Virus record (IMG/VR): IMGVR_UViG_3300045988_161046
Location: 32,001 to 96,000 of that record
Length of the DNA stretch: 64,000 nucleotides
Origin: a virus
Strand: one strand, 5' to 3'
How positions within the stretch are numbered: the stretch's first letter is position 1; every line of letters begins with the position of its first letter. This document shows, piece after piece, positions 8,576-63,670 of this stretch. A program made the position numbers and the translations under genes. The notes beneath the pieces are model-generated. The model saw nothing but the letters and a program-made list of their open reading frames with translations, was not told the DNA's origin and did not search any database.

Positions 8576-8605
8576 ACGTTTTCATTTCTTTTAATGTTTC
8601 TGACG

Positions 8606-8643
8606 CAAAGGTAAGAAAAAAAAGGGTTTATGGTTGGGACAAA
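8606..8643 (-). promoter_or_regulatory. N25-class promoter-like module TTTGTCCC-N21-TACCTTTG
   Basis: Minus strand TTTGTCCCAACC...TACCTTTG, about 30 nt upstream of the ATG at 8575. Confidence 0.5.
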
Positions 8644-8648
8644 CAAAT

Positions 8649-8726
8649 AAAGGTAAAAAAGTAAAAAGGTAAAAAAGTAAAAAAGCCTAGCGGGATAATG
8701 GCTTGCTTTTTACCTTTTTACCTTTA
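8649..8726. repeat. inverted pair of A-rich GGTAAAAAG repeats around a short hairpin
   Basis: 8649-8685 (GGTAAAAAAG units) faces 8706-8726 (the complement); immediately 3' of the Rep stop. Confidence 0.7.
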
Positions 8727-10016
8727 ACTTCTGTAGAACACAGGAGCAAAAGAGCCTTTGCAATCGAAAAACTCCTTTGCCTTCTCCTCGATACCCAACT
8801 TTCGGATCATTTCAAAATCATCATCGCTACACTCCACGCAGAACCTTCCGTTCTTCATGCCAATGAAGGAAATGCGGGAAAGCAGTAATTTCTCAGCATC
8901 GCCTATAATGAGCTTGCAGAATGCCTTCCACTTGTCAGCGCCTTGCCCGCTCTCGGTTACAATCTTACTTTCCGTAAGCTGATGCACATGGGCGAATATA
9001 TCACCCTCTACCGGTTTTCCAGTTTGCTGTGTGCTGTTCTGCTTATACCGCTCATTCAGAGTGGCAGCAATATCAGTGTTCTTATCCTTAGATAGATGAT
9101 TCTCGCCAACCACCGTGCGCCGTACATGAAACCTGATAAACTCCGGATCACCTTTTCGCTTGCCCGATTTATAGATGATGTCTTCATCTTTCAGCTCATC
9201 AAATACGATGTCCGTCTGGGATAACTTCTCCATCCTCTGCAAATCCTTACATACCACATCGAGGACCTGCTTTCTGAACTGCGAGAACTTGGGGTATTTG
9301 TTCATAACCGGTTCGCCCAGCTCATTCAATAGAATCTCCTTCTTGTTGTTATCTAGTTCTACCAAACCGAGATAAGACTTCAGTTCCAGGAAAGGCACCG
9401 ATATATCCATGCTGCGGTTCAAACCTATCTGACGCAAGAGATAGATATATACGCGTGGAGTGTTCACGTTCTTGGCAAACTTTGCTATCATGGATATATG
9501 GTGAATATACCCCTGCCCCATATCGAATACACGCTTAGAAAGTTTCGGGTCAATCTCAAGCAGGATATATCCCAGTATGCGGTCCACCTTCTTTCCGTCC
9601 TTAGTCGTATATCCGTTCTTCGACAATGGTATACGCATTCGGCTGAATATATGCGTAAATTCCTCGCTACCATCGGGCAGTGTACTCTTCACCGCCATAT
9701 CAAGAATACTTGTCTTCAGCTCCGCTCTCAACTTCTGATAGCTCATATTCTCGTAAGTAATGAAATCGTGAATATCTATCTTGATAGGCGGGATATTCAT
9801 AACAGCATGGTCCACGCCTTGCTCAAACAGAAAATCAGAACGAGCGTCGCCCAACTGTCTTTTCTCCAGGAAGTACTCATCCACAAATTTTTGGAGGTGG
9901 GTACTCGTTAGCATCAACACGTTCTGCTGGAACAAAGTGTATTGCTTATCCAGTTTCGTGAGCGAAAAAGGAGTATTTATCCAGGCTAAACCCTTGTTTT
10001 CATTATCTTCATTCAT
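8724..10016 (-). CDS. plasmid-type replication initiator candidate (iteron-binding Rep-like)
   Basis: 430-aa ORF whose ATG abuts four tandem 22-bp iterons; N-terminal 'LTKLDKQYTLFQQNVLMLTSTHL' recalls Rep winged-helix domains (from memory, no search). Confidence 0.45.
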   Translation of the reverse strand: MNEDNENKGLAWINTPFSLTKLDKQYTLFQQNVLMLTSTHLQKFVDEYFLEKRQLGDARSDFLFEQGVDHAVMNIPPIKIDIHDFITYENMSYQKLRAELKTSILDMAVKSTLPDGSEEFTHIFSRMRIPLSKNGYTTKDGKKVDRILGYILLEIDPKLSKRVFDMGQGYIHHISMIAKFAKNVNTPRVYIYLLRQIGLNRSMDISVPFLELKSYLGLVELDNNKKEILLNELGEPVMNKYPKFSQFRKQVLDVVCKDLQRMEKLSQTDIVFDELKDEDIIYKSGKRKGDPEFIRFHVRRTVVGENHLSKDKNTDIAATLNERYKQNSTQQTGKPVEGDIFAHVHQLTESKIVTESGQGADKWKAFCKLIIGDAEKLLLSRISFIGMKNGRFCVECSDDDFEMIRKLGIEEKAKEFFDCKGSFAPVFYRS

Positions 10017-10019
10017 ATA

Positions 10020-10107
10020 AAATCTGACTTTTCGTTTACCTAAATCTGACTTTTCGTTTACCTAAATCTGACCTTTCGTTTACCTAAATCTGACCTTTCG
10101 TTTACCT
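10020..10107 (+). repeat. four tandem 22-bp iterons AAATCTGACYTTTCGTTTACCT
   Basis: Counted directly: 10020-41, 10042-63, 10064-85, 10086-107, with no spacers. Confidence 0.95.
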
Positions 10108-10204
10108 AGAACTTTGTAAGTACTTAAATATCAGCACGTTAAGATTTTCCTAATATATATAATATAGATAATCTTATAATTTTCTATTTAAAGACTCCGT
10201 TTTT
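10108..10204. other. AT-rich stretch between iterons (possible DNA-unwinding element)
   Basis: 'AATATATATAATATAGATAATCTTATAATTTTCTATTTAAAG' lies between direct and inverted iterons. Confidence 0.45.
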
Positions 10205-10226
10205 AGGTAAACGAAAAGTCAGATTT
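10205..10226 (-). repeat. inverted iteron copy
   Basis: AGGTAAACGAAAAGTCAGATTT is the exact reverse complement of the iteron. Confidence 0.9.
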
Positions 10227-10314
10227 AGATAGGTAAATTGATACCAAGAACTATACCCCCTCGGTACTATTTCGGTACCTCGTCGAGGTAAAAGACTTTA
10301 GTAAGATTTTACCT

Positions 10315-10336
10315 AAATCTGACTTTTCGTTTACCT
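10315..10336 (+). repeat. isolated direct iteron copy
   Basis: Exact 22-mer just 3' of the RHH gene stop. Confidence 0.9.
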
Positions 10337-10339
10337 AGA

Positions 10340-10762
10340 TTATCCGTTCTTATGTCTATCCAGATACTCGATAACTGCCTGCAGAGCGATGTCCTTGATA
10401 GGCGTACCCGTCTCCATCTTCATCTGAAGAATCTGCATGTAATATTTCATCGGCACATAGATGGTGATACCGTTTTGCGTCTTCTTGCCAGCCTTTCTCA
10501 TAGGTGCAGAGTCGGGAGCAGAAAAAGGAGCGGCTGATGCAGGAGGAACCGGAGACTGCGAAGGTGCTTCAGCCTGGGGTGCAGGTTCCGGCTCTGCGGT
10601 ACCCTGCCCGTTCTGCTGTTTCTCCAATGCCTCGGCAGCCCGCTTCTGGCGAGCTTCCTCATTCGCCTCATAAATTTTCTCTATACCTTGGATAGCTGGA
10701 GAGTCTTCCAGTCCTTTAAACTTGTTTACACTATTATTCTTTGCTTGTCTTGCCATAATCAC
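10340..10762 (-). CDS. ribbon-helix-helix (ParG/CopG-like) DNA-binding protein, probable partition adaptor
   Basis: C-terminal 'ITIYVPMKYYMQILQMKMETGTPIKDIALQAVIEYL'; P/A/Q-rich linker; directly downstream of parA. Confidence 0.45.
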   Translation of the reverse strand: MIMARQAKNNSVNKFKGLEDSPAIQGIEKIYEANEEARQKRAAEALEKQQNGQGTAEPEPAPQAEAPSQSPVPPASAAPFSAPDSAPMRKAGKKTQNGITIYVPMKYYMQILQMKMETGTPIKDIALQAVIEYLDRHKNG

Positions 10763-10797
10763 TAAACATTAATCATTAATCACTAAAACACTAATCA

Positions 10798-11670
10798 CTA
10801 CTTCGGCATACTTGCCAATATCTCCTTCGTAAAGTTCTCATAGTCTTGCCCTACTCTACTGTAAGGCGAATAAGAAAATATATCCTGATTGATAGCCTGC
10901 GCTTCCACCATCTTCGTATCACGACGAGTATACGAGTCGAACATGTAGTCATCAAACTTATTGCCCAGATACTCCTTAAACTGCTTTGTGGCTCTCGTCT
11001 GATCATTACTCATTACCATAAACAGACCACGAATATCAATATCAGGGTTCAAGTCTTCTCGCGTTTCCTGTACCGCATTCAGAATTTCGGCAATACCTTT
11101 TGTTGCCAACATTTCAAGCTGGATAGGTATCACTACACCCGATGCAACCGATAGGGCATTATGCGTGAGAAGTGACAAAGCTGGTGGGCAGTCAATCAAT
11201 ACATAGTCGAAAGCCTCCAGGATAGAAGATACTCCCTCATTTATCAGTTCATCACCCCGAACTTCGGTCAAAGGCTTGCCGAATAACTTAAACAAAGCCT
11301 TGCGTGGTACCGGCATCTGATTGAGGAATGGTTCGATATTGATAAGGCGATAAGATGCTGGAGCAAGATAGATACCTTCCCTTACCTGGTAAACAGGCAA
11401 GCGGGATTGCTGTATCATCGCATCGTACATGGTAGGCTGCCCCATATTCTCTGCCTCACTCCATCCAAAGAGGAAGGAAAGGCTCGACTGCGGATCGAGG
11501 TCGATGAGCAAGATACGAGGCTTGCGCTCCTTGCCGTTTTCACCCTTGCCAAAGTAACCCTTGCCATAACGACGAAGACCAGTTGCTAAACTCTGTACGG
11601 TTGTTGTCTTACCAACTCCTCCCTTGTGATTTACGAAGGCGAGGATTTCTTTTAATCTTGTTTCTGCCAT
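10798..11670 (-). CDS. parA: ParA/Soj-family partition ATPase
   Basis: Deviant Walker A 'NHKGGVGKTTT'; 'LLIDLDPQ'; Walker B 'YVLIDCPP'. Confidence 0.85.
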   Translation of the reverse strand: MAETRLKEILAFVNHKGGVGKTTTVQSLATGLRRYGKGYFGKGENGKERKPRILLIDLDPQSSLSFLFGWSEAENMGQPTMYDAMIQQSRLPVYQVREGIYLAPASYRLINIEPFLNQMPVPRKALFKLFGKPLTEVRGDELINEGVSSILEAFDYVLIDCPPALSLLTHNALSVASGVVIPIQLEMLATKGIAEILNAVQETREDLNPDIDIRGLFMVMSNDQTRATKQFKEYLGNKFDDYMFDSYTRRDTKMVEAQAINQDIFSYSPYSRVGQDYENFTKEILASMPK

Positions 11671-11838
11671 AATCTTAAAAGTATTAATTCTTTTATATAT
11701 ATTAATGTATTCATTTCTTTGTTGAAAGAAAGAAAGCTATATTTTTTTCTTTCAATAAACACACTAACGCATCCACACATAAATACACATTTGTGCTTTT
11801 CTGCTTTTGTGGAAACATGCTTTTGTGTTTTAATGCCG

Positions 11839-11870
11839 CAAAGTTAAGATTTTAATTTTAAACCGCCAAA
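11839..11870 (-). promoter_or_regulatory. canonical TTTG-N20-TAACTTTG promoter
   Basis: Minus strand TTTGGCGGTTTAAAATTAAAATCTTAACTTTG, upstream of parA. Confidence 0.5.
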
Positions 11871-12007
11871 TGTTTTTAATATTTTTAATGCTTTTATGTA
11901 TGGATTGATGTATTGAAAGGAATAAACTAACAAATCAATCAAGAAATAAACCAATGAACGAACAAAGAAACAAACAAATGAAGAAACAAAGAAAGAAATT
12001 AATCAAT

Positions 12008-12075
12008 AAATACACAAACACATAAATACATAAACACATAAACGTGTGTTTATGTATGCTTTTATGTATTTGCGT
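12008..12075. repeat. CATAAA(T/C)AC repeat cluster with central palindrome (candidate centromere)
   Basis: 'ACACAAACACATAAATACATAAACACATAAACGTGTGTTTATGTATGC'; a related block lies at 11774-11795. Confidence 0.4.
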
Positions 12076-12132
12076 TTTTATGCTTTTCTGTTTTTTACCT
12101 TCTCATTTATCTTCTCAAAAGGAAAGGAAAAA

Positions 12133-12189
12133 GAAAACGTACCAAAGTATCGAAGTACGATAGTACTAAAGTGCTTTGGTACGTTTTCT
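12133..12189. terminator. long perfect-armed hairpin GAAAACGTACCAAAG...CTTTGGTACGTTTTC
   Basis: 15-nt arms read directly; A/T runs on both sides (bidirectional look). Confidence 0.45.
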
Positions 12190-12195
12190 TTTTCA

Positions 12196-12343
12196 GTGTT
12201 GAATGTTGAGTGTTAAATGTTGAATTTGGCTAGCGCCCTTGAGCCTGGTGGGGGACCAGCGATAGAATCGCTGGGGACGGGGGCGATAGGAAGAAACGCA
12301 ACCCCGATAGACTAATTCAACATTCAACACTCAACATTGAAAT
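12196..12343. repeat. low-complexity palindrome (GTTGAATGTTGAGTG... arms) enclosing hairpin-repeat copy 3
   Basis: Left arm 12196-12226 is near-complementary to right arm 12314-12343. Confidence 0.8.
12254..12285 (+). repeat. GAACGG-hairpin repeat copy 3
   Basis: CCAGCGATAGAATCGCTGG at 12256-12274, followed by GGACGGGGGCG. Confidence 0.9.
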
Positions 12344-13335
12344 CAAAACTCCACCACGCTCTGTTCTTCCTCCCACGCATCATTGAGTGATACCGAAATG
12401 GTGGAATGGTGATTATAGTAAGAGCCGCTTACTACCGTAACATGGTTGCGCTGCAAACTGATGTTCGATAGCTTAAACGAGGTGTAAGGCTCGGTGCTGC
12501 CCTTGCGGTTCATGGTGAAGGTGATGTCCGTAGTATAGCCATCCTTCGGCACCAGGAAATAGTAGAAGAGGGAAGAGGAGGTTTTGCCGGCATATCTCGT
12601 AACGTCAGCGATACGCAGGTTTGATACCTTGCCGGTGGCGGCAAAGGTCTGCCAGTCCCATTGTTTATATTCATCGAGCTGTAACTGCAGGGTACTGCAA
12701 TCTTCCGGATATGTTCCGGTGTTCTTTACCGTCAGTTTCGCTACGATACGTTCCAGTTGGATATTGATACTCTGGTTCTGACCGACGCTTATACTCACGT
12801 CCTGCACTGCGCCGAAGCTGTCAGAGTTCTTCGTGCTCGTAAGCACAGCAGGAAGGACACCATCGGCAGACACCGAAAAGGCAGTATTATCTGCCAGACT
12901 CCATAACGAGCCATCAGCAGAGAGTAGGGTAGGGGTTTCGCTTCTCGTAGCTATCACCTTCAGCGTATGATTGCCGTAATCGAGACTCAGGGATGGCTCT
13001 GCAAAATCCTCGGCATCGGCAGTCTGGTGCAACACCTGGAGCAGTTTGCCGCTTGCCTTGTCGTAATCGAAGATGTAGAGGTCGGTCATCGCCTTGCCGT
13101 TGGCAGCAAGCTCGGCACGCGTGATAGGGTAGGCGATCCGTCGGCACTGGCTCACGCTCACGTCACCGCCTTCTGGCGAAGTAAACCGCAGTCTTACCAT
13201 AGTCTTGCCCGTCATAGGCCGGCTGCCTCCGTTCTCTACTGCATCTTCCACATACTCGGTGCATGAGGTATTCATCATCATGCACGCTGCCATCATCGCA
13301 AAGGTGGTGGCAAACAAAAACTTCTTAGTTCTCAT
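12343..13335 (-). CDS. secreted lipoprotein (fimbrillin-like fold suspected)
   Basis: Signal + lipobox 'MMMNTSC'; beta-rich; 'ERIVAKLTVKN' recalls Bacteroidota fimbrillin/Mfa-like proteins (from memory). Confidence 0.4.
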   Translation of the reverse strand: MRTKKFLFATTFAMMAACMMMNTSCTEYVEDAVENGGSRPMTGKTMVRLRFTSPEGGDVSVSQCRRIAYPITRAELAANGKAMTDLYIFDYDKASGKLLQVLHQTADAEDFAEPSLSLDYGNHTLKVIATRSETPTLLSADGSLWSLADNTAFSVSADGVLPAVLTSTKNSDSFGAVQDVSISVGQNQSINIQLERIVAKLTVKNTGTYPEDCSTLQLQLDEYKQWDWQTFAATGKVSNLRIADVTRYAGKTSSSLFYYFLVPKDGYTTDITFTMNRKGSTEPYTSFKLSNISLQRNHVTVVSGSYYNHHSTISVSLNDAWEEEQSVVEF

Positions 13336-21541: not shown

Positions 21542-22249
21542 CTACTTTTGAGGATTCCCTGATACGATACGCACGCTATAATAAGGCGTACTGAAAGGGT
21601 ATCTTACTTCGTTAACGAAGTACTCGACAGACGGTGTACTCATTGCCAGGGTATCCTGGCAAATTACCCGTCCATTCATACCATGCACCATCATGTTAAG
21701 TGCACACATTTTACATACCAGCGGATCTGAGTCTTGAGCAATATACTGGAATGGTCGCCCAGCTGAATTGTCCAGTTTACTAGCCTCGATAAAATGAGCC
21801 AAGAGGAGTCTGCCACTGCCAGCTGCACAATCATACACCGTGATGCCTTCTATTTTCGTGCTAGTGGCTTCGTTTTTGCCAGAGCCTATAATGGAGCTCA
21901 TCAGGGTAGAAGCACTCTGAGGAGTGAAAAATTGCCCCGTTTTCGATGCCTTGCCAGCGGTTAAATACATATCCTCATACAGCATACCGAAAACGTCGAG
22001 CCACTGGCCGCGGTCCATAGTCTGGCTAACATCATTCAACCAAGCCACAGCCAAAACGCCAAACTTTGGTTTAGCCTGAAGGCGCTTCTGCTGCCAGTTT
22101 TTAAAACCGTCCAGAGTACCGTCAAAAGCCTTCACGCTGAACAGGTCAAGCAGATAGTCACAAAAATCACTGAGCGCCGTTTCGTATGGTCGCCCGTCTG
22201 CCTTCGTCTGCTGGCTCAGATAATCAATATAAAATTTCTTGTTTATCAT
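21542..22249 (-). CDS. N6-adenine methyltransferase-like SAM-binding module that stops at motif IV
   Basis: 'GQFFTPQS' (motif X), 'VYDCAAGSGRLL' (motif I); ends 'IVSGNPQK*' where NPPY/F is expected. Confidence 0.5.
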   Translation of the reverse strand: MINKKFYIDYLSQQTKADGRPYETALSDFCDYLLDLFSVKAFDGTLDGFKNWQQKRLQAKPKFGVLAVAWLNDVSQTMDRGQWLDVFGMLYEDMYLTAGKASKTGQFFTPQSASTLMSSIIGSGKNEATSTKIEGITVYDCAAGSGRLLLAHFIEASKLDNSAGRPFQYIAQDSDPLVCKMCALNMMVHGMNGRVICQDTLAMSTPSVEYFVNEVRYPFSTPYYSVRIVSGNPQK

Positions 22250-28974: not shown

Positions 28975-29135
28975 AGGTAAAAAAGTAAAAAGGTAAAAAG
29001 GTAAAAAGAGCCTAGCGGGAGATAGGGACTCCTGCTAGGCTCTTTTCTTTTAGGACCAGCGATAGAATCGCTGGGGACGGAGGCAAGGGGGTAAGGTTCT
29101 TTTTACCTTTTTACTTTTTTACCTTTTTACCTTTA
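28972..29135. repeat. large inverted pair of A-rich GGTAAAAAG repeats enclosing a terminator hairpin and hairpin-repeat copy 4
   Basis: 28972-29008 faces 29099-29135; inner hairpin GAGCCTAGC...GCTAGGCTC at 29009-29042. Confidence 0.8.
29054..29084 (+). repeat. GAACGG-hairpin repeat copy 4
   Basis: Hairpin 29056-29074, followed by GGACGGAGGC. Confidence 0.9.
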
Positions 29136-32615: not shown

Positions 32616-34064
32616 TTAATCCAAGTCGTAAGTAAAGTTACCACCACGAAGGAAGACTATAGATGCGAAAGTTTCCAATGGGTAGATGTTTTGTTGCCTT
32701 CCCAAATTAAGTTTTTCAATGATGCGCTTGCTTGTAGTACAGAACTTATATTTCTCACTATTAGCATCATCCTTGAAAGAAAACATCACCCAACAGCGAC
32801 CACTTTTATTTGCTATCGTCACATTATCCTCGAAATCGTGAATGATTATCGGTACATGTGTCTGTGCCAACTCTGCAAGTTTCTTCTCCAGTACGTCAAA
32901 GACACGCTTACCATCCTTATCCACATTTACTTGACTTGTAGTAATTCCATGTTCTTTAAAACTCATGTTATTTTCCTTTAATATCGTATTCCATAAATTA
33001 TTACATTTTCCCCATTTAGCTATTCCCCAATAGGAAGCATACAACTCTTTCCTTCTTTTGCGGCTCTTTACTCCATGAAAGCTTTTCACCATGTTGAGTT
33101 TGGTACGCTTACGCATTCTCATGTTTTTACGGGAAAATACATATCCCACAAAGTCGATGCTGCGACCATCTATCAGCTTACTCTCATCCATCAATGGTGC
33201 AACATAGCTACTACATTTCACTACCATTCCAATACGACTAAGAATATCATCAAAGCACCTCAATAACTCATTGGCTTCTTCCTTGGTTCTAACCATCGCA
33301 ACTATATCATCGCAATGCCTATGATAAAACTCTATGTGCAATTTCTGCTTGGCATATCTGTCAACTTCCGAAAGTACGAGATTGCCGATTATCTGCTTGA
33401 TGCAGTTACCTAGTGTTATACCTCGTTCTTCACCTACATAAGCAAGTGGAGTATTCGAAGTCCAAGGACACGTTGCACGTTTCTTGGCATCTTCTTCCAG
33501 CAACAAAGGCTCAATATCCGATTCATAGTCTAAAACCGTCTTCTCTATTAGTTCTAAGAATAGGTCATCATCAATGTACCTTCTCAACGCATTCATTACA
33601 ACCTTGTGAGGCAAAGACGGATAGAACTTCCTTATATCTAGCTTTACTACGTAATGAAGATTAGGATGCTTACGCAATAGCTGTTGGGTTCTCAAAGCTG
33701 CGAATACTTGACCCTTACCCTTTCTTCCTGCCGAAGAATCGTATATCAGAATCTTCTCAACTATAGGCTCGAACACTACCTTAATGGCATGATAGAGGAT
33801 ATTCCAAGGCATGAAGTGTTGTGGATATATCACTCTGTCCTTATCCTTTGCGTGAAGAACCCTGGGACGATAAGGCTTCGTAGGATATTCTCGCAAAATT
33901 ATCATACTTTGAATCTTTTCGAGATTTGCAGTCTCATTTTTAAGAAACTGCTTCACGTACCAAGCTTCCTTATCTTTTACCACACTTGTTGCATCATTCG
34001 CACCTTCCAATAAGGTTTCCATCTTTATCACCTTGTCAATAAGATGCCTTGCTTTCTTTGTCAT
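32616..34064 (-). CDS. DGR-type reverse transcriptase
   Basis: 'LDIRKFYPSLPH', 'GITLGNCIKQIIGNL' (DGR-like [LI]GxxxSQ-type motif), 'HRHCDDIVAM' (xxDD), 'DFVGYVF'; adjacent TR. Confidence 0.85.
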   Translation of the reverse strand: MTKKARHLIDKVIKMETLLEGANDATSVVKDKEAWYVKQFLKNETANLEKIQSMIILREYPTKPYRPRVLHAKDKDRVIYPQHFMPWNILYHAIKVVFEPIVEKILIYDSSAGRKGKGQVFAALRTQQLLRKHPNLHYVVKLDIRKFYPSLPHKVVMNALRRYIDDDLFLELIEKTVLDYESDIEPLLLEEDAKKRATCPWTSNTPLAYVGEERGITLGNCIKQIIGNLVLSEVDRYAKQKLHIEFYHRHCDDIVAMVRTKEEANELLRCFDDILSRIGMVVKCSSYVAPLMDESKLIDGRSIDFVGYVFSRKNMRMRKRTKLNMVKSFHGVKSRKRRKELYASYWGIAKWGKCNNLWNTILKENNMSFKEHGITTSQVNVDKDGKRVFDVLEKKLAELAQTHVPIIIHDFEDNVTIANKSGRCWVMFSFKDDANSEKYKFCTTSKRIIEKLNLGRQQNIYPLETFASIVFLRGGNFTYDLD

Positions 34065-34270: not shown

Positions 34271-34389
34271 TTATAAGTTAGACGAGCCCCGTAATTCGTC
34301 CTGCGGTTATCGAAAGCGTTATTCGAATTGACGCAACCGAGACCGCTGTGCGACTGGTTGTTGGAATTGCCACCCCAGATACAGAGCTT
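34271..34389 (-). repeat. DGR template repeat (TR)
   Basis: 119 bp matching 34584-34702 except at 18 coding-strand adenines; contains 8 AAY codons in the VR frame. Confidence 0.9.
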
Positions 34390-34536: not shown

Positions 34537-34555
34537 GCTGACCCTAAAGGTCAGC
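34537..34555 (-). promoter_or_regulatory. hairpin just 3' of VR (7-bp stem, 5-nt loop) overlapping the target stop codon
   Basis: GCTGACC-CTAAA-GGTCAGC read directly; placed like DGR homing-associated hairpins. Confidence 0.5.
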
Positions 34556-35845
34556 TCCGTTTACGATTTTCGGTAATGCGCCATAATAAGCGAGACGAGC
34601 CCCGCAATCCGCCCTGCGGATATCGAAAGCGTTACTCGAATGGACGCAACCGAGACCGCCGCGCGACCGGGCGCCGGAATAGCCACCCCAGATACAGAGC
34701 TGCCCAACAGGCTTATTATTGCCGTCATAGCACCAATACTTATCTCCCCAACGGCTACCAGAGCCACCTCCACCTTGTGAAGGAATGAGGTCGAAATGTT
34801 CACCAATCGCCATCTTTGCTATCCACATTTCTTGACTTCCCAATCGTTGAATAGTACGATATGTTCCTGTAGGATGGCTAATAAGTTCCGCATCGGTCGG
34901 CAGTCGATTACCTTCGTATATAAACGCCTCTAGTCCAGTCTGTCCTTCATTGTTTACATTACCGAAATAGATACCTTGTCTCATTTCCCATTGCCAGTTG
35001 TACCAGTCCTCGACACCAAAGAGAGATACACGACAAGCATTCGGTGCATTAGTTAACGTGATAGGTATCTTACCGCAACTATCTCCAAGTGATATTGTTG
35101 CACCCGTCTTCAACTGAGAAACTCCACCCCAGTTGTCTGCCCATTCACCTTCACCGCCAACACCATTTCCGATATTAGCTTGTACGTTAGGATTGCCATA
35201 CTCGGATAGGTTTGTCATCATTCCCCATTGACCATGCTCGTAGCAAGTGATACCATAATCCTTACCATTGTTTCTAGCGAGATTCCAGAAATCACGGATA
35301 AATCTGCTTCCTGATACATCAATGTTCTTACCGCTACGAGAATGAAGAGCATTACCAGCAACACTACCCATGTATGCACCAATCATCGGATGCTCGATAT
35401 AATAGCCACCAATAGGATATTGTGACTGCCATACAACATTGCATCCCATTGATGCATCATACTTAACGACAAAATAAAGGCGTGGAGCTACCACGAATAC
35501 ATCACCTTTCGATTCATCAACGGTCGTACCATCCGCAAAAATCGAACTATTGATAGATGATAGTTTTGCCATCTTCTCACCTCCAGTCTTCACAAGGTAG
35601 CGACCGATAGCTCTCTTGTACTCTTCCCATAAGGAGAGATTACCTATTCTTCCCCAATTTTGACTATCTTCGTCTTGTTTGATAGGTGTACCCCACGCTA
35701 TCAGAGCCAAATCAAGTTGATTAGTCTGAATAGAGTTAGCCAAATCAGACAGCTTGATACGTCTGAGCGAGCCACCAACCTCTATCAATAAAGTATCACC
35801 CTTAACCATTGATGATACCAATGCTACTGTTGCAAGATTTTTCAT
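34544..35845 (-). CDS. DGR target protein (C-type-lectin-fold-like variable C-terminus), receptor-binding candidate
   Basis: VR covers the last ~40 codons: 'QLCIWGGYSGARSRGGLGCVHSSNAFDIRRADCGARLAYY'. Confidence 0.8.
   Translation of the reverse strand: MKNLATVALVSSMVKGDTLLIEVGGSLRRIKLSDLANSIQTNQLDLALIAWGTPIKQDEDSQNWGRIGNLSLWEEYKRAIGRYLVKTGGEKMAKLSSINSSIFADGTTVDESKGDVFVVAPRLYFVVKYDASMGCNVVWQSQYPIGGYYIEHPMIGAYMGSVAGNALHSRSGKNIDVSGSRFIRDFWNLARNNGKDYGITCYEHGQWGMMTNLSEYGNPNVQANIGNGVGGEGEWADNWGGVSQLKTGATISLGDSCGKIPITLTNAPNACRVSLFGVEDWYNWQWEMRQGIYFGNVNNEGQTGLEAFIYEGNRLPTDAELISHPTGTYRTIQRLGSQEMWIAKMAIGEHFDLIPSQGGGGSGSRWGDKYWCYDGNNKPVGQLCIWGGYSGARSRGGLGCVHSSNAFDIRRADCGARLAYYGALPKIVNGADL
34584..34702 (-). 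repeat. DGR variable repeat (VR)
   Basis: See TR; 11 T>C, 4 T>G and 3 T>A differences on the plus strand relative to TR. Confidence 0.9.
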
Positions 35846-35870
35846 ATTTTGCTATTTTTATGTTACTAAA

Positions 35871-37076
35871 TCAGTTACCAATTAAGTATTCTCCGTTCTC
35901 ATCAACGAGGGGTTCAGAACCATCAGAGAAGAAGTCGAAGCTCGGCTTGTATTCAGCATCACATCTTATCTCCAACTCATCATCAGCAGTTTCGCCTAAA
36001 CCAGTATCAGAGATATTGAAGATTGCCGTATCGCCCTCTTGCCATTGCCTTGTAGTTGTAGCACCGCCATTTTCGGCAATAGTGCTCCAATTGAGTTTGA
36101 GGACATTAGCAGGGCAGTCCACGATGTTACCCTCTGAATTGACTAGAGCAATCTGTTGTCGGTTGTCAACTCCAGGAGATATGTCTACGTTCTGTCCTGC
36201 CGATACGCTATACTTCGGATAGGTTCGGGAGACAGATATTTGCTTGTTGCATACTTCCGTATCGCCCACAAATGCCCTAATTACGTATAATGCCGAATTA
36301 ATCAGTCTTAAATCAAGTGCGATGTAACTTGTGTTGATTGCTGCCACCTCATTCATTCCTACGCTTATCTGTGTCATCGAAGAACCGCTCATCTTGTAGA
36401 GCTTGATAGTGTAGCCAGAAGTAATACTCTTTGCGCCCTTGTAGATGTGGAGAGGAATATTTCTCAGATAAGCCTTCTCATCAATGCAAGCGTTCCTAAC
36501 AGCATCGGATGCAGCTATCATTCCATGAGCTACCTTGTAGTCGTACAGAAGCAATCTATCTAACATCGGATTGTAGATGATAGTCTCATCATCATCAATA
36601 GCCATTGAATAGGCATCATCGCTCTTTGCAACCGTGTTCAGAACTACCTCATCTGTAAGGATAGGAACATTGATTTTGGTTCGATAGTCAACGATGTCAG
36701 CCTTGAACCTCAGAGCAAATCGTTCTGTTACTGCTACATTACGGAATATGGTAAGGTCTCCACGTGTAGCACCATCCTGATTAATTGAGTAATCCGATGC
36801 AGCCCATACATTGCTTATATCCTCGCCGTTGACAAGCCACACCATGTTGGCAAGTACCGCATTTGCTTGCTGATACTTCCACGTTCCATCGCTTGCATAA
36901 GCTGTGATGTCTGGGTGTAACACACAAGGTGTGTTGGCTCGGTTCGGCTCGAAGCTACTATTAACCACGTTCCACACTTGCGTTGTAGGAGAGCCGCCCG
37001 ACACACATACGATTGATTTTGCCGTATTGAGAGGTGCAAAAGACCTTCTTATTCTTACTGCGTTGTTTGTTGCCAT
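35871..37076 (-). CDS. virion (tail/fibre module) protein
   Basis: 401 aa, beta-rich, N/S/T-rich; assigned by position only. Confidence 0.4.
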   Translation of the reverse strand: MATNNAVRIRRSFAPLNTAKSIVCVSGGSPTTQVWNVVNSSFEPNRANTPCVLHPDITAYASDGTWKYQQANAVLANMVWLVNGEDISNVWAASDYSINQDGATRGDLTIFRNVAVTERFALRFKADIVDYRTKINVPILTDEVVLNTVAKSDDAYSMAIDDDETIIYNPMLDRLLLYDYKVAHGMIAASDAVRNACIDEKAYLRNIPLHIYKGAKSITSGYTIKLYKMSGSSMTQISVGMNEVAAINTSYIALDLRLINSALYVIRAFVGDTEVCNKQISVSRTYPKYSVSAGQNVDISPGVDNRQQIALVNSEGNIVDCPANVLKLNWSTIAENGGATTTRQWQEGDTAIFNISDTGLGETADDELEIRCDAEYKPSFDFFSDGSEPLVDENGEYLIGN

Positions 37077-41594: not shown

Positions 41595-41695
41595 GGGTAA
41601 AAAGGTAAAAGAGTAAAAAGGTAAAAAGAACCTTAACCGCTCTTTTGCCTTTTACTATTTTTTACCTTTTTACCTTTTTACTTTTTTACTTTTAA
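41595..41695. repeat. inverted pair of A-rich GGTAAAAAG repeats
   Basis: 41595-41628 faces 41648-41695; the right arm encodes the ACP C-terminal 'KVKK*'. Confidence 0.8.
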
Positions 41696-41926
41696 AATCA
41701 CAAGATTGACTACATCAGAAACGAGTTTGCAATCTTTCGCCTCTTCCGGAGTAATCTTGATGTGGAACATCATTTCCACCTGCTGGATCATATCGAGAAA
41801 ATCAATAGACTCAAGTTCTACCTCGTCACGAAGATTAGAGTGCTCTGTTACCTCGTGTTTTACCCATTCAGTTTTCACGCTGTTCACGATGGTAATAATG
41901 CGAGATGTTATTTCTTCTTTTTTCAT
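41678..41926 (-). CDS. acyl carrier protein
   Basis: 82 aa, acidic; 'ELESIDFLDMIQQVEMMF' matches the ACP DSL-helix pattern, with Ser as the phosphopantetheine site. Confidence 0.7.
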   Translation of the reverse strand: MKKEEITSRIITIVNSVKTEWVKHEVTEHSNLRDEVELESIDFLDMIQQVEMMFHIKITPEEAKDCKLVSDVVNLVILKVKK

Positions 41927-41928
41927 AA

Positions 41929-43131
41929 CTATACTTTTGAAATAATAAATGAGGAGTTTGTACCGCCAAAGCCGAAGGCATTACAGAGAATATGGTGAGG
42001 GGAGTACCACTTAGGGCGCATTACCAGGTTAAGATGAGGGAAAGCATTCTCATCGGTGGTGGCTGCATGGAACAGACGGCCATAAGCGAACATCGCTACG
42101 GCTTGCACGGCTTGAGATACGCCCGCCATCCAACACTCGTGACCCGTCATCCCTTTTGTAGCTACTACGTTCGGACAGATAGGGAAAATTCTCTCTATTG
42201 CCTTTGCCTCGGCTTCATCGCCCATCGGTGTACCCGTAGCATGAGCAAGTACTACGTCTATCATACCTTCGTCCAATCCTGCGTCCTCGATAGCATTCAG
42301 CATCGACACTTCTTCCTGATAGCTATCAGGGGTAGTGATGGCCTTGCCGTTTGAAGAGAAACCATAACCGGAAAGGGAAGCGAAGGAAGGCACCTTCTCT
42401 TCTTTCAATCGAAGACTATCCGATGGTTCGAGGATGATGCAGGCTGCACCACCAGATGGGGCGAGTCCGTTTCTATTCTTGCCAAACGGCTGCACCTTAT
42501 CGGGTGAGAAGACACGCAGCGCATCGAATGCCTCCATGCTATAAAGTGATGTCGTTTCCTGCGTACCAACAACGATAACCATCTCGGTCTGTTTGCTATC
42601 AAGAAGCATCTTGGCAAGACCGATTGCATGGCCACCTCCTGCACAGGCCGCACTTACGGTAAGTGATAGGCCATGAATACCGAGGATAGTAGCCAGGTTC
42701 ATACTGATAGCGGAATTAAGTGTTTTGAACAGAGTTCCTGTCTCCAGGTATCTATTATTGAGATCATAATCTACATGATGAACTACCTCTCTTGTTTCGT
42801 AACACTCAGAGTCGTTACTAACGATGACAGAAACATTATGGTTCTGAAGGAAATCATCGCTTATCTTTGCTTTCCTCAAAGCTTCAAAAACGGCATCAAG
42901 TGCATAAAAACCATGTAAGGGCATACTATTGAGTTGTGTCCGAGTTAACTTTTTCGAGTAATCTCCTTTCCAACCAGTCACACGACCGCACAACTCCGAA
43001 AGATAATGCTCTCTGATTTTGTCGTGATATAGTCCGCATTTGCCCTTGTAGAGGTTCATGGCTACTTCTCTTGTATTTCTACCCATGGCAGAAATAATAC
43101 CGGTTCCGGTAATCAATATCTTTTTATCCAT
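41929..43131 (-). CDS. beta-ketoacyl-ACP synthase, FabB/FabF (Cys-His-His) type
   Basis: 'SAACAGGGHAIG', 'AHATGTPMGD', 'KGMTGHECWMAG', 'NAFGFGGTNSSFII'. Confidence 0.85.
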   Translation of the reverse strand: MDKKILITGTGIISAMGRNTREVAMNLYKGKCGLYHDKIREHYLSELCGRVTGWKGDYSKKLTRTQLNSMPLHGFYALDAVFEALRKAKISDDFLQNHNVSVIVSNDSECYETREVVHHVDYDLNNRYLETGTLFKTLNSAISMNLATILGIHGLSLTVSAACAGGGHAIGLAKMLLDSKQTEMVIVVGTQETTSLYSMEAFDALRVFSPDKVQPFGKNRNGLAPSGGAACIILEPSDSLRLKEEKVPSFASLSGYGFSSNGKAITTPDSYQEEVSMLNAIEDAGLDEGMIDVVLAHATGTPMGDEAEAKAIERIFPICPNVVATKGMTGHECWMAGVSQAVQAVAMFAYGRLFHAATTDENAFPHLNLVMRPKWYSPHHILCNAFGFGGTNSSFIISKV

Positions 43132-45997: not shown

Positions 45998-46034
45998 TTT
46001 TTTACCTTTTTACCTTTTTACTTTTTTACCTTTA
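45998..46034 (-). repeat. A-rich GGTAAAAAG junction repeat
   Basis: Minus strand TAAAGGTAAAAAAGTAAAAAGGTAAAAAGGTAAAAAA between two ORFs. Confidence 0.8.
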
Positions 46035-49222: not shown

Positions 49223-49260
49223 TTTTTTTACCTTTTTACTTTTTTACTTTTTTACCTTTA
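49223..49260 (-). repeat. A-rich GGTAAAAAG junction repeat
   Basis: Spans the stop of 49258..51075 to just before the ATG at 49215. Confidence 0.8.
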
Positions 49261-51211: not shown

Positions 51212-51223
51212 GAGGGGAGGGGA

Positions 51224-51253
51224 CCAGCGATAGAATCGCTGGGAACGGAGGCT
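51224..51253 (+). repeat. GAACGG-hairpin repeat copy 7
   Basis: Hairpin 51224-51242. Confidence 0.9.
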
Positions 51254-52020: not shown

Positions 52021-52162
52021 ACTCTAATAATATTTTCGGTTTATCAACATCATGCCCTTTGCCCCCCCCACAAAGGCATAGGGCAATACCTTTCGGATGC
52101 ACGATAATGCCATTTTGGGATGGACTATAAGAACCGAGGATAATAGGACGATTACAAATCAT
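52013..52162 (-). pseudogene. C5-MTase TRD mini-ORF a (contains G8 tract)
   Basis: MICNRPIILGSYSPSQNGIIVHPKGIALCLCGGGKGHDVDKPKILLEYE*; ATGA overlap with the upstream ORF. Confidence 0.45.
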
Positions 52163-53460
52163 TTCTTCTCCAAAAACTGATGATACAAATTATCTAACTT
52201 TGGATTTTGGAACTTGCCGTTCTCTTTCCAGTCATTGAACAGCGGCATGATGATGTCCTCGTGAGCAGAAGAAATCTCCTCCTGCAGTTCTTTTAGAGTG
52301 CAATTCCAAAGATGCGCCTCTTCTATATAAAGAGTGAGGATGGCTTTCAATGCCATTGCATTCTCGTGGCTCGGCTCTATCTCGAACTGATGGAAGACGC
52401 AGGTGTCTTTATCGTTTGCCTGGAGGAATTTGCTGACGGCTTCATCTTTCAGGAAGAACCTTGTATCTACTTCTTCCTGCAACACATCTTCCAGCTTTCT
52501 CTTCAGCGGAATAGGGTCGGGGAACTGGTAATCGAAGGCTACATCTTTTCTCATCGAGAGGCAGAATACTCGGTCGCGGTTCTGCGGAACACCATAGTCT
52601 TTGGCATTGAGTCTTGCCCATCGGCTTACGTAACCGAGAGATGAGAGCTTATCAAGCCACTTCTGAAAATCGGGCATAAACTTCTCACTTACCAGGGCTG
52701 CCACATTCTCCTGGAGTAGATACTTCGGTCGCAATACTTCCACGGCATCGGCTACTCGCCACAATAATGCCGAGCGGGTATCGGAACCTTCCTTCAAACC
52801 CATCTGCTTGCCGGCTTGCGATATATCCTGACAAGGTGAGGAATAGGTAAAGAGGTCGATTTCTTGCCCCCCCACATTACGCTTTACCTGTTGCCAGTCG
52901 ATTTTGGTTATATCGCCCAAGGCTTTGTCGGCAAACTGCGGAAAGATGAGATTGTGCATCTGACAGGCATACTTATCTATATCGCTCCAGCCTACACACG
53001 TCCAGCGGAAATCAGGGTGCTGCTGGGCGAGGACATCGGCTGCCATCAACTGCGAGTCGTAACCGGAGAAGGTGGTGAGGATAAGTTTCTCGCCATGGTT
53101 CTTATCTACCGGATAGGTAGGGAGTTGGTCTTCTGGGAAGAAATCGGCAAAAAATGAAGTCTGCGCCTCATGCTTCGGTTCTTTCGGGTACCAGAGTTGC
53201 TGATAGATGGCTGCGAGCACATCTACCACGATGGAGTTACCTGCCTGCTTGTATTGCTGACTGGCTGATACTGCCATATCTTCTGCCTTTCCCTTGCTCT
53301 TATAGCCGGCTACTCGCTCGGCTGCCTGGGCGTTGGTACTTTGCATCGTGCGGATCACATCATCACGCACACCCATCAGTCGAAAACACTCGAAGGGTGT
53401 CAGCTTTCGGATGGCATAAGACTTAATGGTCTTATCCTTGAAATTGAACTTTGTTATCAT
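52159..53460 (-). CDS. cytosine-C5 DNA methyltransferase, circularly permuted motif order (IX-X then I-IV-VI-VIII)
   Basis: 'IRKLTPFECFRLMGV' (IX), 'YKQAGNSIVVDVL' (X), 'LTTFSGYDSQ' (I), 'SSPCQDIS' (IV), 'LLQENVAAL' (VI), 'VPQNRDRVF' (VIII). Confidence 0.8.
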   Translation of the reverse strand: MITKFNFKDKTIKSYAIRKLTPFECFRLMGVRDDVIRTMQSTNAQAAERVAGYKSKGKAEDMAVSASQQYKQAGNSIVVDVLAAIYQQLWYPKEPKHEAQTSFFADFFPEDQLPTYPVDKNHGEKLILTTFSGYDSQLMAADVLAQQHPDFRWTCVGWSDIDKYACQMHNLIFPQFADKALGDITKIDWQQVKRNVGGQEIDLFTYSSPCQDISQAGKQMGLKEGSDTRSALLWRVADAVEVLRPKYLLQENVAALVSEKFMPDFQKWLDKLSSLGYVSRWARLNAKDYGVPQNRDRVFCLSMRKDVAFDYQFPDPIPLKRKLEDVLQEEVDTRFFLKDEAVSKFLQANDKDTCVFHQFEIEPSHENAMALKAILTLYIEEAHLWNCTLKELQEEISSAHEDIIMPLFNDWKENGKFQNPKLDNLYHQFLEKK

Positions 53461-57848: not shown

Positions 57849-57959
57849 AATTGTATCTTTTTTGATGATTAAACGAAATGGCGGCGGAAGCCATATTCCG
57901 CCAGGTCAGGCGACCGCCGCCGAGGATTTATAGAGGGAATACCTTTTCTGCCTGTTGGA

Positions 57960-57989
57960 CCAGTGATGGAATCGCTGGGGACGGGGGCA
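57960..57989 (+). repeat. GAACGG-hairpin repeat copy 9
   Basis: CCAGTGAT-GGA-ATCGCTGG (one T.G pair on the plus strand); just 3' of the capsid gene stop. Confidence 0.85.
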
Positions 57990-59341: not shown

Positions 59342-60940
59342 CTAGAGGAGACCATTTTCTCTCTTGTACTCCTCGATAGCTTTCTTTGAACCTACTGGGT
59401 CGGCTGGATTCCAGGTTGGGTAGCCTGTCTTTGCGGTTTCTACCTTTGCGCCCTCACCGTTGTTCTGAGGTGCGGCACCCTGCGCTGGCTCCTCACCTGG
59501 GTTCTCGTTCAGCTCGGCAATCTGAGCGTCCTTGTCGGCGATGGTCTGCTGGGCAGTCGCGAGTGAAGCCTGGGCAGTCTTCAACTCCTCATCTGCCTTT
59601 GCCTTCTCCTCATCGGCCTTAGCCTTTGCCTCTTTCAGGTTCTTGATTTCCTCGTCCTTCTGGGCGATGGTTTCAGCGAGTGCGTCGTGCTTTGCCTGAA
59701 GGTCAGCAAGATTCTGCTCTGCTGTGGTGGCTTTCTGCTTGGCATCAGCCACAGCCTGCTCCTGCGATGCGAGATGAGCTTCGAGGGTATCGAGCAACGG
59801 GGCATTCATGAATGCGCCTTCCTCCTTTACCTCAATCTGCTGACCATCCTGCATACCGCAAGCGGCATTGATCTTTGAATAATTTGCCATATTGATTGAT
59901 TTTTGTGAAATAGTATGTTGATGATTTTCTTGTACAATAGATGCAGATGCCTGCTCCGGCTCGTTCTCTTCCGGTTCAGGCTTTTGGATAGAAGCCTCTC
60001 GATTGATAGGCTCGGCTGTGCCGTTGTAGAGAGCGAAGCAACGCTGAACGCACCCCATAAAGGTAGACTGGTCGTCCATAAGGATTCCCTTTACGTCTTC
60101 AGCATTGAATACCTTACCTTTCAGGTGAACATCCTCGATAGCGTTAGGACAGGCTTTCTTCACATCGGCTCTGAACTCCACGCCCAACTCGGAAAGCTCT
60201 TTGATAAGCTCCTTGTTGTCATTCTTGTTGGCGATGTCACGGTAAGCCTTATTCTTGTCGAAAGACTCTGGATCGTACTCCTCGTGATAAGTCTCATCGG
60301 TATATTTATCCTTTGAGCCATTAGCCAAAGTATAGAAGGCAGCCATCACGCCGATGCAACCAACCTGGTCTTTCGGATTCAAGTAATATCGCTCATCGCA
60401 AAGAGAAGCGAGATACATACCTGCACTGGCACACATTCCATCTACCAGGGCGATGACCTTCTGACCCTTGGAGTGGGCATAGTCGATAGCAAGTGCATAA
60501 TCGTTTTTAGCCCAAGCCGAACCGCCAGGAGTATTAATGATAAAAAGATGACCTCGGCAAAGCGGATGGTCAGCTGCACGCATCATCATATCGCGATGGT
60601 CGATAGAACCATAAGAGCAATATCCACCATTTCGAGTGATAGGACCATCTACGGTGAGAACCGAAACAAACGGGAAGTTCTGTGCCCGCTCATCCTCCTC
60701 CGGATAGTCGAGCTGATAGTTAGCTCTCACCTGCTTGCCATCCTCGGAAATCTGATATTCCTCCGGATAGTAGGTGTTGCCTTCAGCATCCTCCGCAGTG
60801 ACGAATCCACAAGTCCTTTCCGGTTTGGTAAACTCTGTGTGAGTATTTAGGTTCTGCTCAATCGATTTACGAATGCCATGCACGAAATCGGGGTTCACCA
60901 TCCACTTCTTCTCGGTCAGAATTTCATAAAGACCTTTCAT
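59342..60940 (-). CDS. prohead protease (S49/ClpP-like) fused to a coiled-coil scaffold
   Basis: 'FIINTPGGSAWAKND...ALVDGMCASAGMYLAS...VGCIG'; C-terminal 'ADLQAKHDALAETIAQKDEEIKNLKEAKAKADEEKAKADEELK'. Confidence 0.7.
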   Translation of the reverse strand: MKGLYEILTEKKWMVNPDFVHGIRKSIEQNLNTHTEFTKPERTCGFVTAEDAEGNTYYPEEYQISEDGKQVRANYQLDYPEEDERAQNFPFVSVLTVDGPITRNGGYCSYGSIDHRDMMMRAADHPLCRGHLFIINTPGGSAWAKNDYALAIDYAHSKGQKVIALVDGMCASAGMYLASLCDERYYLNPKDQVGCIGVMAAFYTLANGSKDKYTDETYHEEYDPESFDKNKAYRDIANKNDNKELIKELSELGVEFRADVKKACPNAIEDVHLKGKVFNAEDVKGILMDDQSTFMGCVQRCFALYNGTAEPINREASIQKPEPEENEPEQASASIVQENHQHTISQKSINMANYSKINAACGMQDGQQIEVKEEGAFMNAPLLDTLEAHLASQEQAVADAKQKATTAEQNLADLQAKHDALAETIAQKDEEIKNLKEAKAKADEEKAKADEELKTAQASLATAQQTIADKDAQIAELNENPGEEPAQGAAPQNNGEGAKVETAKTGYPTWNPADPVGSKKAIEEYKRENGLL

Positions 60941-63615: not shown

Positions 63616-63641
63616 TGCTTTTTACTTTTTTTGCTTACGGA

Positions 63642-63670
63642 CCAGCGATAGAATCGCTGGGAACGGAAGC
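63642..63670 (+). repeat. GAACGG-hairpin repeat copy 11
   Basis: Consensus hairpin at 63642-63660. Confidence 0.9.

Follow-up and report, generated by a model that had tools for sequence, protein, structure and literature searches.

A candidate plasmid prophage of Segatella with a Rep-iteron origin and a type Ib-like partition module

A stretch of 64,000 nt of viral DNA, positions 32,001 to 96,000 of the IMG/VR record IMGVR_UViG_3300045988_161046 (hereafter the window), carries at 8724-12100 a block of plasmid-type genes and repeats that we consider likely to combine a theta-type origin, made of a replication initiator (Rep) and its iterons, with a type Ib-like partition system, and so to keep this gut phage in Segatella as a circular plasmid prophage of low copy number. 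Such extrachromosomal persistence is well supported, although we infer it from genes and repeats: Rep, iterons, the partition ATPase ParA, its small adaptor and virion genes all lie on one 101.7-kb circle, and a plasmid prophage that spreads as a virion is the most likely state because the element has virion and lysis genes and a Cro/CI-type regulator and no detected integrase. The genes of the module are what a specialist expects of a phage-plasmid, a kind of element already known and barely documented in Bacteroidota; what this case adds is the host, the abundance of the phage family, its link to Segatella extrachromosomal elements and an exchange of cassettes accompanied by orphan iterons.

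The origin region is built on a 22-bp iteron, AAATCTGACTTTTCGTTTACCT, whose four tandem copies (starting at 10020, 10042, 10064 and 10086, with 0, 0, 1 and 1 mismatches) stop 3 nt short of the ATG of the 430-aa Rep open reading frame (ORF) (Table 1). This in-register array at the Rep start codon had been described in the original prediction, and it was confirmed by our scan: six copies exist in all, the tandem four plus one inverted and one distal direct copy, with no further copy across the window when up to 3 mismatches were allowed and 0 expected in shuffled sequences. The inverted and the isolated direct iteron also lay where they had been predicted, whereas the AT-rich stretch that had been placed between these two was found instead between the tandem array and the inverted iteron, where guanine-cytosine (GC) content falls to 18-27% (60-bp windows; mean of the whole window ~44%); the 88 bp separating the inverted from the distal iteron have a GC content of 38-45% and are thus not AT-rich. 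An AT-rich block occupies the matching position in relatives and in a plasmid of Segatella copri, the inverted iteron keeps its relative position in all relatives with the same type of Rep (type A, see below), and relatives carry 3-7 iteron copies at the site of the tandem array, other Rep types having different 22-bp repeats. Repeats with a 22-bp period precede Rep in all but two of the relatives examined, and no iterons follow rep in the scan of the window. The locus therefore has what characterises a Rep_3-type origin, namely direct iterons of ~17-22 bp beside rep and an AT-rich unwinding region. By their position, the tandem iterons would be the Rep binding sites of the origin and probably the rep operator too; as they touch the rep start codon, bound Rep probably limits rep expression.

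We assign Rep to the iteron-type initiators because fold, profile and family-level Pfam matches agree. Rep has 51 homologues; among the 24 of them that were aligned, Rep3_C was matched in 21 (best 4e-6) and Rep3_N (PF01051) in five (best 3e-6), and the profile of the family alignment matches the pi protein of R6K (2nra) with an E value of 1.2e-5. When an AlphaFold2 (AF2) model of Rep (mean predicted local distance difference test score, pLDDT, 70) was compared with known structures using Foldseek, ranks 1-16 were taken by pi, RepE54, dimeric RepE, RctB domains 2-3 and a complex of Rep with a DNA-unwinding element (Rep-DUE), with probabilities of 0.92-1.00 and E values of 1e-4 to 7e-3; the low TM-scores (0.22-0.39, target-based) are what a different orientation of the two winged-helix domains would produce. 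The Rep of the window taken singly had no match in NCBIfam, in a single-sequence PDB search or among the proteins of GenBank phages. The initiator role originally predicted for this ORF is supported: as judged from sequence and model, Rep is a divergent two-winged-helix initiator of the Rep_3/pi/RepE kind, predicted to bind iterons. The most conserved part of the protein, residues ~360-430 (window 8724-8935), is a C-terminal domain lying outside both winged helices, whose sole structural neighbours were DnaA domain I and the DUF721 domain of DciA (E 0.6-1.5, not significant); this likeness, if real, would fit helicase recruitment.

The assignment of ParA is unambiguous on sequence grounds, with AAA_31 matched at 5e-36, CbiA at 3e-11 and Soj/ParA structures at 1e-22 to 5e-27 over the whole length, while the ParA_partition and RepA models reached ~1e-20, under their cut-offs. 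The deviant Walker A box that had been predicted is present (KGGVGKT), and the protein aligns from residue 6-10 on with Soj/ParA structures of 255-276 aa, and is thus without an N-terminal DNA-binding extension, a small ParA as in type Ib systems. The small protein encoded directly after parA fits a type Ib adaptor in size and place. Its gene has alternative starts at 10762 and 10756, and the ATG at 10756 (138 aa) is probably the one used because the consensus start of its homologues is MARQAK. An alignment of 18 homologues revealed 48 conserved N-terminal residues, a Pro/Ala/Gln-rich linker of variable length and 45 invariant C-terminal residues, and these correspond in the AF2 model to a long N-terminal helix, a disordered linker (pLDDT <50) and a strand-helix-helix (pLDDT 77-87). 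The C-terminus aligns end to end with the ribbon-helix-helix (RHH) protein ORF56 of pRN1 (2k9i; E 0.01-0.03); no Pfam or other family was matched, and Foldseek with the model gave nothing significant, the best matches, all of them RHH-like (a TCP domain, CdbA and NikA), having E >2.6. Position, size and the strand-helix-helix model thus agree with the RHH protein of the original prediction, and the fold of the C-terminus itself is probable.

Upstream of parA, a 670-bp non-coding stretch carries arrays of 8-bp units that make it a candidate centromere and operator: a proximal array (11774-11830) lies between parA and its candidate promoter, and inverted arrays (12005-12095) lie distal to it. 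The 600 bp upstream of parA contain 11 units against 0.3 per 600 bp elsewhere, a ~35-fold enrichment. Bacteroides promoters have the consensus TAnnTTTG / TTTG, and the candidate par promoter, sitting between the two arrays, has a TTTG 20 nt upstream of its -7 box, TAACTTTG, a box kept in place in relatives. A sigma-70 promoter scan showed no enrichment, and this model is not relevant to Bacteroidota. Directly upstream of the par region, a gene at 12343-13335 encodes a lipoprotein-like protein of 330 aa that matches DUF6562 and the Mfa2 fimbrillin-anchor family weakly, under the thresholds, and three successive long hairpins follow this gene at 12006-12341.

Co-variation between proteins and repeats across relatives provides the best available evidence that Rep would bind the iterons and the adaptor the 8-bp arrays. 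Rep was found in 51 IMG/VR viral contigs, many of 90-110 kb, the tape measure protein in ~80, and a ParA at least 72% identical in at least 118, mostly of 50-110 kb; ParA is kept even in clades whose tape measure protein is just 62-70% identical, and the partition gene is, given its presence in so many contigs, a core gene of the phage family. These relatives are listed in IMG/VR as viral genomes, and two independent assemblies, of which one comes from a Hadza sample, measure 104,212 and 104,216 bp. At one and the same locus we found four types of Rep, each with its own multi-copy repeat: type A, that of the window (GGTAAACGAAAAGTCAGATTT), type B (CACTACAAATGTGGCTAAGTTT), type C (GGGTATAGTTTTCGGTAC) and type D (TTACTAAAGTCTTTTACC). 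The adaptor and the arrays vary together as well. In the 600 bp upstream of parA, the six loci whose adaptor has the beta-strand ITIYVP contain 7-14 [AG]CA[CT]AAA units (background 0.2-0.3) and 0-4 GTAC boxes, whereas the five loci with VK(I/L)(S/I)LP contain 0-1 of these units and 9-29 GTAC boxes (background 1.2-1.9), many of them exactly 8 bp apart. A third par cassette has a ParA 43% identical to that of the window and an adaptor of 182 aa, followed by a 3' remnant of the window-type adaptor gene (locus L005). Cassettes of both kinds are interchangeable at a single locus, with four Rep-iteron and three ParA-adaptor types recorded (loci L005, L053, L058, L062, L072 and L075).

Single repeats of foreign type adjoin each origin. 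The spacer between the inverted and the distal iteron of the window holds one type C and one type D copy (10241-10314), motifs that are multi-copy beside Rep types C and D and missing from the closest relatives of the window; in the genomes with Rep types B, C and D it is an A copy that is retained, at the distal spot just past the stop codon of the small protein. The type C motif, GGGTATAGTTyTyGGTAC (10241-10257), had first been considered as a centromere because it recurs in distant relatives, and was rejected since it is absent from the closest relatives and is a multi-copy 22-bp repeat of another Rep type. That this phage family draws its replicon cassettes from one pool shared with the large Segatella extrachromosomal elements, and that orphan iterons, far from being scars of recombination, are decoys titrating the initiators of competing co-resident phage-plasmids or plasmids, is a speculative proposal that we hold to be rather improbable; if true, the orphan iterons would be an incompatibility weapon deciding which episomes share a Segatella cell.

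Judged by sequence identity and layout, the replication and partition module belongs by descent with Segatella plasmid replicons. A translated search of PLSDB with Rep gave matches in Segatella only. With the protein annotated as 'RepB family plasmid replication initiator' on a circular 58.9-kb plasmid (NZ_CP085934.1) of S. copri DSM 18205, Rep shares 58% identity, as compared with 34-39% for the type B-D proteins of its own phage family, and it is 44% identical to the Rep of a 93-kb S. copri plasmid and of a 317-kb S. hominis element. On the DSM 18205 plasmid, the genes run in the order ParA, 99-aa protein and Rep, and the intergenic region contains inverted iterons, an AT-rich block and seven 22-bp iterons reaching the Rep ATG. 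The two ParA proteins are 42% identical; between the small proteins no BLAST similarity was detected, and that of the phage had no match in PLSDB. A half-site, GGTAAA(C/T), is common to the phage and plasmid iterons, whereas the second half differs (GTGGTTTT versus GTCAGATTT). Among species-representative genomes, the plasmid-type Rep (58%) was found in 17 S. copri or Prevotella assemblies and in one metagenome-assembled genome (MAG) binned as Lachnospiraceae, its carriers including a 135-kb 'extrachromosomal' replicon of HDD04 and a 90-kb plasmid of G8. The plasmids and large elements of S. copri (NZ_CP085934.1, 58.9 kb; NZ_CP152485.1, 135 kb; NZ_CP146525.1, 90 kb) thus have the same gene order and origin layout as the phage; they differ in carrying metabolic and accessory genes and none of the head genes of this phage.

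A bacterial host in Bacteroidota, as originally predicted, and more precisely in Segatella/Prevotella, is supported by the Rep and ParA relatives, by the Mfa2-family fimbrillin-like gene beside the module and by the head protease, whose nearest deposited relatives are those of Flavobacterium phages. The Mfa2 fimbrillin family is known mainly from Bacteroidales. Two carriers of the plasmid-type Rep stand apart. In S. copri H-2632 the gene (58%) lies inside a 3.14-Mb contig (locus L017, NZ_JAVSCC010000001.1, 2,615,230-2,636,522), which suggests an integrated or mis-joined extrachromosomal element, and the Lachnospiraceae case is a 12-kb contig (locus L016, CAVBFV010000073.1) whose placement is probably a binning error. 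The large extrachromosomal elements of S. copri and its relatives have been known only since 2023; these and the plasmids are covered in the description of Blanco-Miguez et al. (PMC10635906), in which phages appear only in a comparison with megaphages.

The proteins of the window were also found on an ENA contig, k99_35637 (sample ERZ27261593; 101,802 bp), to which exact 200-mers map the window with two offsets, +72,827 and -28,876. The sizes of these offsets sum to 101,703, i.e. 101,802 less 99, the k of the assembler; this makes the window a rotation of a metagenomic contig of 101,703 bp after circularisation, with a 99-bp terminal overlap and its junction at window position 28975; circularity, which the original prediction had left to be checked, was thus found. 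Base-by-base comparison of contig and window over a 15.8-kb stretch revealed 2 differences.

Head, tail and lysis genes and a CI-like switch, all named in the original prediction, were recovered by profile searches (a head maturation protease matching phrog_53, two tail proteins, a GH108 endolysin and an HTH_26 regulator; Table 1). Just outside the window lie genes for a tape measure protein of >2,000 aa, ThyX, MazG and a PriCT_2 protein; a sliding clamp, an exonuclease and nucleotide-metabolism genes are also encoded by the element, a holin was seen in a close relative (3300045988_166998), and the large terminase gave a weak match in a relative (phrog_2, 6e-4). No capsid, portal or terminase was recognised in the window by sequence searches of PHROGs and the PDB, and a single-sequence PDB search with a 1,227-aa protein was empty. 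These gaps in the virion gene set, together with the closeness of Rep and ParA to the Segatella plasmid versions and with cargo of non-viral appearance (a ketoacyl synthase, an acyl carrier protein, the fimbrillin-like lipoprotein and acetyltransferases), would suit an element that is no phage, being instead a Segatella plasmid with a defective prophage or tailocin cluster, or a chimeric assembly of plasmid and phage. We regard this as the least probable of the readings weighed here, as more than 50 independent contigs from many samples have one and the same gene order around Rep and ~80 have the tape measure region; moreover, nearly all genes are co-directional and include the head protease, tail, holin-endolysin and retroelement-targeted tail genes, the head protease is unmatched in the 72,556 plasmids of PLSDB, and the 99-bp overlap closes one coherent circle.

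The regulator, a Cro/CI-type helix-turn-helix (HTH) protein of 221 aa, lies at a strand-switch region, divergent from a 62-aa ORF, and is by its matches and position a candidate lysogeny repressor. Neither the precomputed Pfam tables nor direct Pfam scans revealed an integrase, resolvase, recombinase or transposase domain in any gene. The ~17 kb of the circle remaining were screened in the collinear IMG/VR relative 3300045988_166998, which is ~90% identical over a 173-aa flanking protein and 93% over the N-terminus of the tape measure protein, and gave none either, so that the absence of recombinases and transposases noted in the original prediction extends beyond the window.

On the plasmid prophage reading, Rep monomers would bind the four tandem iterons and the inverted and distal copies, melt the adjoining AT-rich stretch of 97 bp and bring in the helicase and replisome of the host for replication in the theta mode, and the extra iteron copies would probably limit copy number through pairing of origins. 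The RHH adaptor, bound to the 8-bp arrays around the par promoter, would both repress the operon and form the partition complex; its N-terminal region would stimulate ParA, which would spread daughter copies over the nucleoid in the ParF/ParG (type Ib) manner. The 101.7-kb element would in this way persist as a circular plasmid prophage and spread horizontally as a virion.

Several observations weigh against this reading. At the level of the module, the Rep of the window alone falls under the Pfam threshold for Rep3_C (PF21205; E 0.042, 14.5 bits against a cut-off of 21.1), the RHH fold of the adaptor is supported at E ~0.01-0.03 only, with Foldseek not significant, no DnaA box was found in the origin region (near-matches across the window are at chance level), and no Bacteroides-type -7 box was found upstream of rep. 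At the level of the element, no S24 peptidase (autocleavage) domain was detected in the HTH regulator, a circular assembly is also expected of a terminally redundant or circularly permuted virion genome, the recombinase screen of ~17 kb rests on a relative rather than on the element itself, and most genes are without a family match, so that a very divergent recombinase could escape profiles. Members of the lineage are likewise missing from PLSDB and GenBank phages, near-identity DNA searches of both with 8600-12400 gave no match, and the sole lineage match in the genome collection is a Rep 97% identical, encoded on a 4.5-kb contig from the MAG of an uncultured Prevotella; no isolate in PLSDB or among the species-representative genomes carries the element. 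The circular assembly, like all else computed here, does not separate the plasmid prophage from its rivals.

The rival to which we give most credit, while considering it unlikely, is a virulent or transiently carried phage whose Rep-iteron locus is a post-infection origin, comparable to those of lytic or integrating phages that have iteron-binding initiators, and whose ParA and adaptor serve, for example, in positioning replicating genomes. Such a phage would account for the PLSDB searches giving no sign of lysogeny in any isolate, its virion DNA would yield circular contigs equally well, and the regulator without an S24 domain suits it; it also agrees with the presence of a sliding clamp, a PriCT_2 protein, an exonuclease and nucleotide-metabolism genes and with there being no sign of a second initiator or of a lytic origin of its own. 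It sits poorly, however, with a three-gene module and repeats common to stably inherited Segatella plasmids, with partition genes and cognate arrays retained across the phage family, and with a repressor-type HTH gene at a divergent switch. Furthermore, parABS serves prophage maintenance in P1, N15 and integrase-less mycobacteriophages, which we count against a purely virulent lifestyle.

Far less probable, in our view, is an integrating temperate phage with an integrase too divergent to recognise, in which Rep and Par would be an unused passenger from a Segatella plasmid. It is clear that the Rep and par cassettes move from genome to genome, and the missing integrase match is weak evidence where most genes have no family match and part of the genome was screened just in a relative; yet profiles for tyrosine and serine recombinases are normally sensitive, and no gene matched. 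Separate assemblies moreover give free contigs of like size (the 104,212 and 104,216 bp above), no recognisable chromosomal genes were present at the loci read (flanks up to 10 kb), and the family-wide conservation of the module and of its co-varying binding sites argues for selection on function.

In function, the module would resemble by analogy the plasmid replicon of P1 joined to a ParF/ParG-like partition system. P1 is a tailed phage of ~100 kb with an iteron-binding RepA, an origin (oriR) whose incC iterons immediately precede repA and adjoin an AT-rich region, and a ParA-based partition operon, and the present element is like the P1 plasmid prophage in its size, iteron position, AT-rich neighbour and ParA operon. 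P1 also has a large type Ia ParA, a helix-turn-helix ParB, a downstream parS, DnaA boxes, incA iterons after repA, Cre/lox and a separate lytic replicon; in contrast, the present element has a small ParA, probably an RHH adaptor and arrays upstream of parA, and no iterons after rep, DnaA box or recombinase were found. The ParF/ParG/parH system of TP228 consists of a small ParA, an adaptor with a flexible N-terminus and a C-terminal RHH domain, and short upstream boxes at 8-bp spacing that would also be the operator. The present ParA, the probable adaptor layout and the candidate upstream 8-bp-spaced arrays are alike, with an operator role predicted here, whereas the adaptor has no detectable sequence similarity to ParG (pRN1 ORF56 being its only structural-database match) and the box sequences differ.

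The original prediction that phage-plasmids are poorly documented in Bacteroidota is a fair one, with two precedents. Carjivirus communis (crAssphage), a Bacteroidota gut phage, has been proposed as a non-integrating phage-plasmid; it is described as linear in the available part of that paper, which describes no iteron/ParA module for it (PMC10983915). An integrase-less branch of the 'Quimbyviridae', also proposed to be non-integrating, has a RepA-like winged-helix protein beside a DnaB helicase, and some 'Quimbyviridae' have diversity-generating retroelements, like the present phage; the available part of that source mentions neither iterons nor partition genes (PMC8008677). The present family differs from both in its long tape measure protein and in the full Rep-iteron-ParA-adaptor module common to host plasmids. 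Of the phage-plasmids detected in a survey of the gut (10.1101/2025.02.07.636470), 87% grouped with elements from Firmicutes and Actinobacteria. Full-text searches of the literature on phage-plasmids together with Segatella, Prevotella or Bacteroidota returned no description of the present lineage.

Few bacteria of the human gut are as abundant, or as strongly associated with health, as Segatella copri and its relatives; their temperate phages have, to our knowledge, hardly been described, and we know of few genetic tools for Segatella. If the plasmid lifestyle is true, lifestyle callers based on integrases misclassify a phage family of at least 118 contigs, Hadza gut samples included, and this family ties together the phage and plasmid gene pools of Segatella, its type A Rep being nearer to host plasmids than to the other types of its own family. 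The 3.4-kb module would then be a candidate replicating, stably inherited vector for Segatella.

Table 1. Positions of the module, of the phage genes named in the text and of two families of dispersed repeats in the window.
Feature	Position	Strand	Remarks
Rep, 430 aa	8724..10016	minus	two predicted winged-helix domains and a conserved C-terminal domain of ~70 aa
Four tandem 22-bp iterons	10020..10107		abut the rep start codon
AT-rich stretch, 97 bp	10108..10204		candidate DNA-unwinding element
Inverted iteron	10205..10226		closes the AT-rich stretch
Spacer with single 'orphan' iterons of other Rep types	10227..10314		type C motif 10241-10257; type D palindrome 10286-10314
Distal direct iteron	10315..10336		directly after the stop codon of the small protein gene
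Small adaptor, ParG-like, 138 aa	10340..10756	minus	N-terminal helix, linker, C-terminal strand-helix-helix (model)
ParA ATPase, 290 aa	10798..11670	minus	deviant Walker A KGGVGKT (residues 16-22)
Candidate centromere/operator	11774..12095		8-bp units [A/G]CA[C/T]AAAn
Candidate par operon promoter, Bacteroidota-type	11839..11870	minus	-7 box TAACTTTG 11839-11846; TTTG 11867-11870
Cro/CI-type HTH regulator, 221 aa	27417..28082	plus	HTH_26 5e-6; PHROG 'transcriptional repressor' families 6.5e-9
Two tail proteins	34544-37076		profile matches
GH108 endolysin	55154-55708		phrog_315 1e-36
Head maturation protease (S49) fused to a coiled-coil scaffold-like region	59342..60940	minus	phrog_53 1.8e-21; Peptidase_S49 3e-6
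GGACCAGCGATAGAATCGCTGGGRACGGRGGC copies	26-52, 12254-12280, 29054-29080, 51222-51248, 54730-54756, 57958-57984, 63640-63666	plus
GGTAAAAA/AGTAAAAA repeats	7632, 8652-8683, 19228, 28976-29131, 41596-41690, 45999-46030, 49225-49256

Elsewhere in the window, a diversity-generating retroelement was identified, with a reverse transcriptase at 32616-34064 (minus strand), a template repeat at 34273-34388 and a variable repeat at 34586-34701; the latter lies inside the C-terminus of a tail protein gene (34544-35845), and all 16 of the 16 differences between the repeats fall at template adenines. Aimed at a tail protein in this way, the retroelement could let a resident episome alter its host range again and again. 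At 41600-43131, among tail-region genes, the window encodes a beta-ketoacyl synthase (400 aa; Pfam 1e-26 and 3e-18) next to an acyl-carrier-like protein of 82 aa, an unusual cargo for a phage. N6 DNA and C5 cytosine methylases are present at 21542-22249 and 52159-53460, and the screened stretch of the relative (loci L082 and L094) encodes an N6/N4 methylase, two radical SAM proteins and several GNAT acetyltransferases, proteins that could have anti-restriction or modification functions.

Searches of the window for tRNA genes, and against Rfam at gathering thresholds, returned none. Two families of dispersed repeats were recorded (Table 1). The first has a GC-rich core of ~32 nt, GGACCAGCGATAGAATCGCTGGGRACGGRGGC, with an 8-bp stem and a 3-nt loop; its seven copies are all on the plus strand, antisense to most genes, and are mostly intergenic, with unrelated flanks and no Rfam match. 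The second consists of intergenic inverted repeats whose arms are runs of an 8-bp unit, GGTAAAAA/AGTAAAAA, often with a small hairpin rich in GC between them; 16 matches were counted where 0 are expected. One repeat lies just downstream of rep and another at the assembly junction, and by their layout these inverted repeats may be terminators or regulatory sites.

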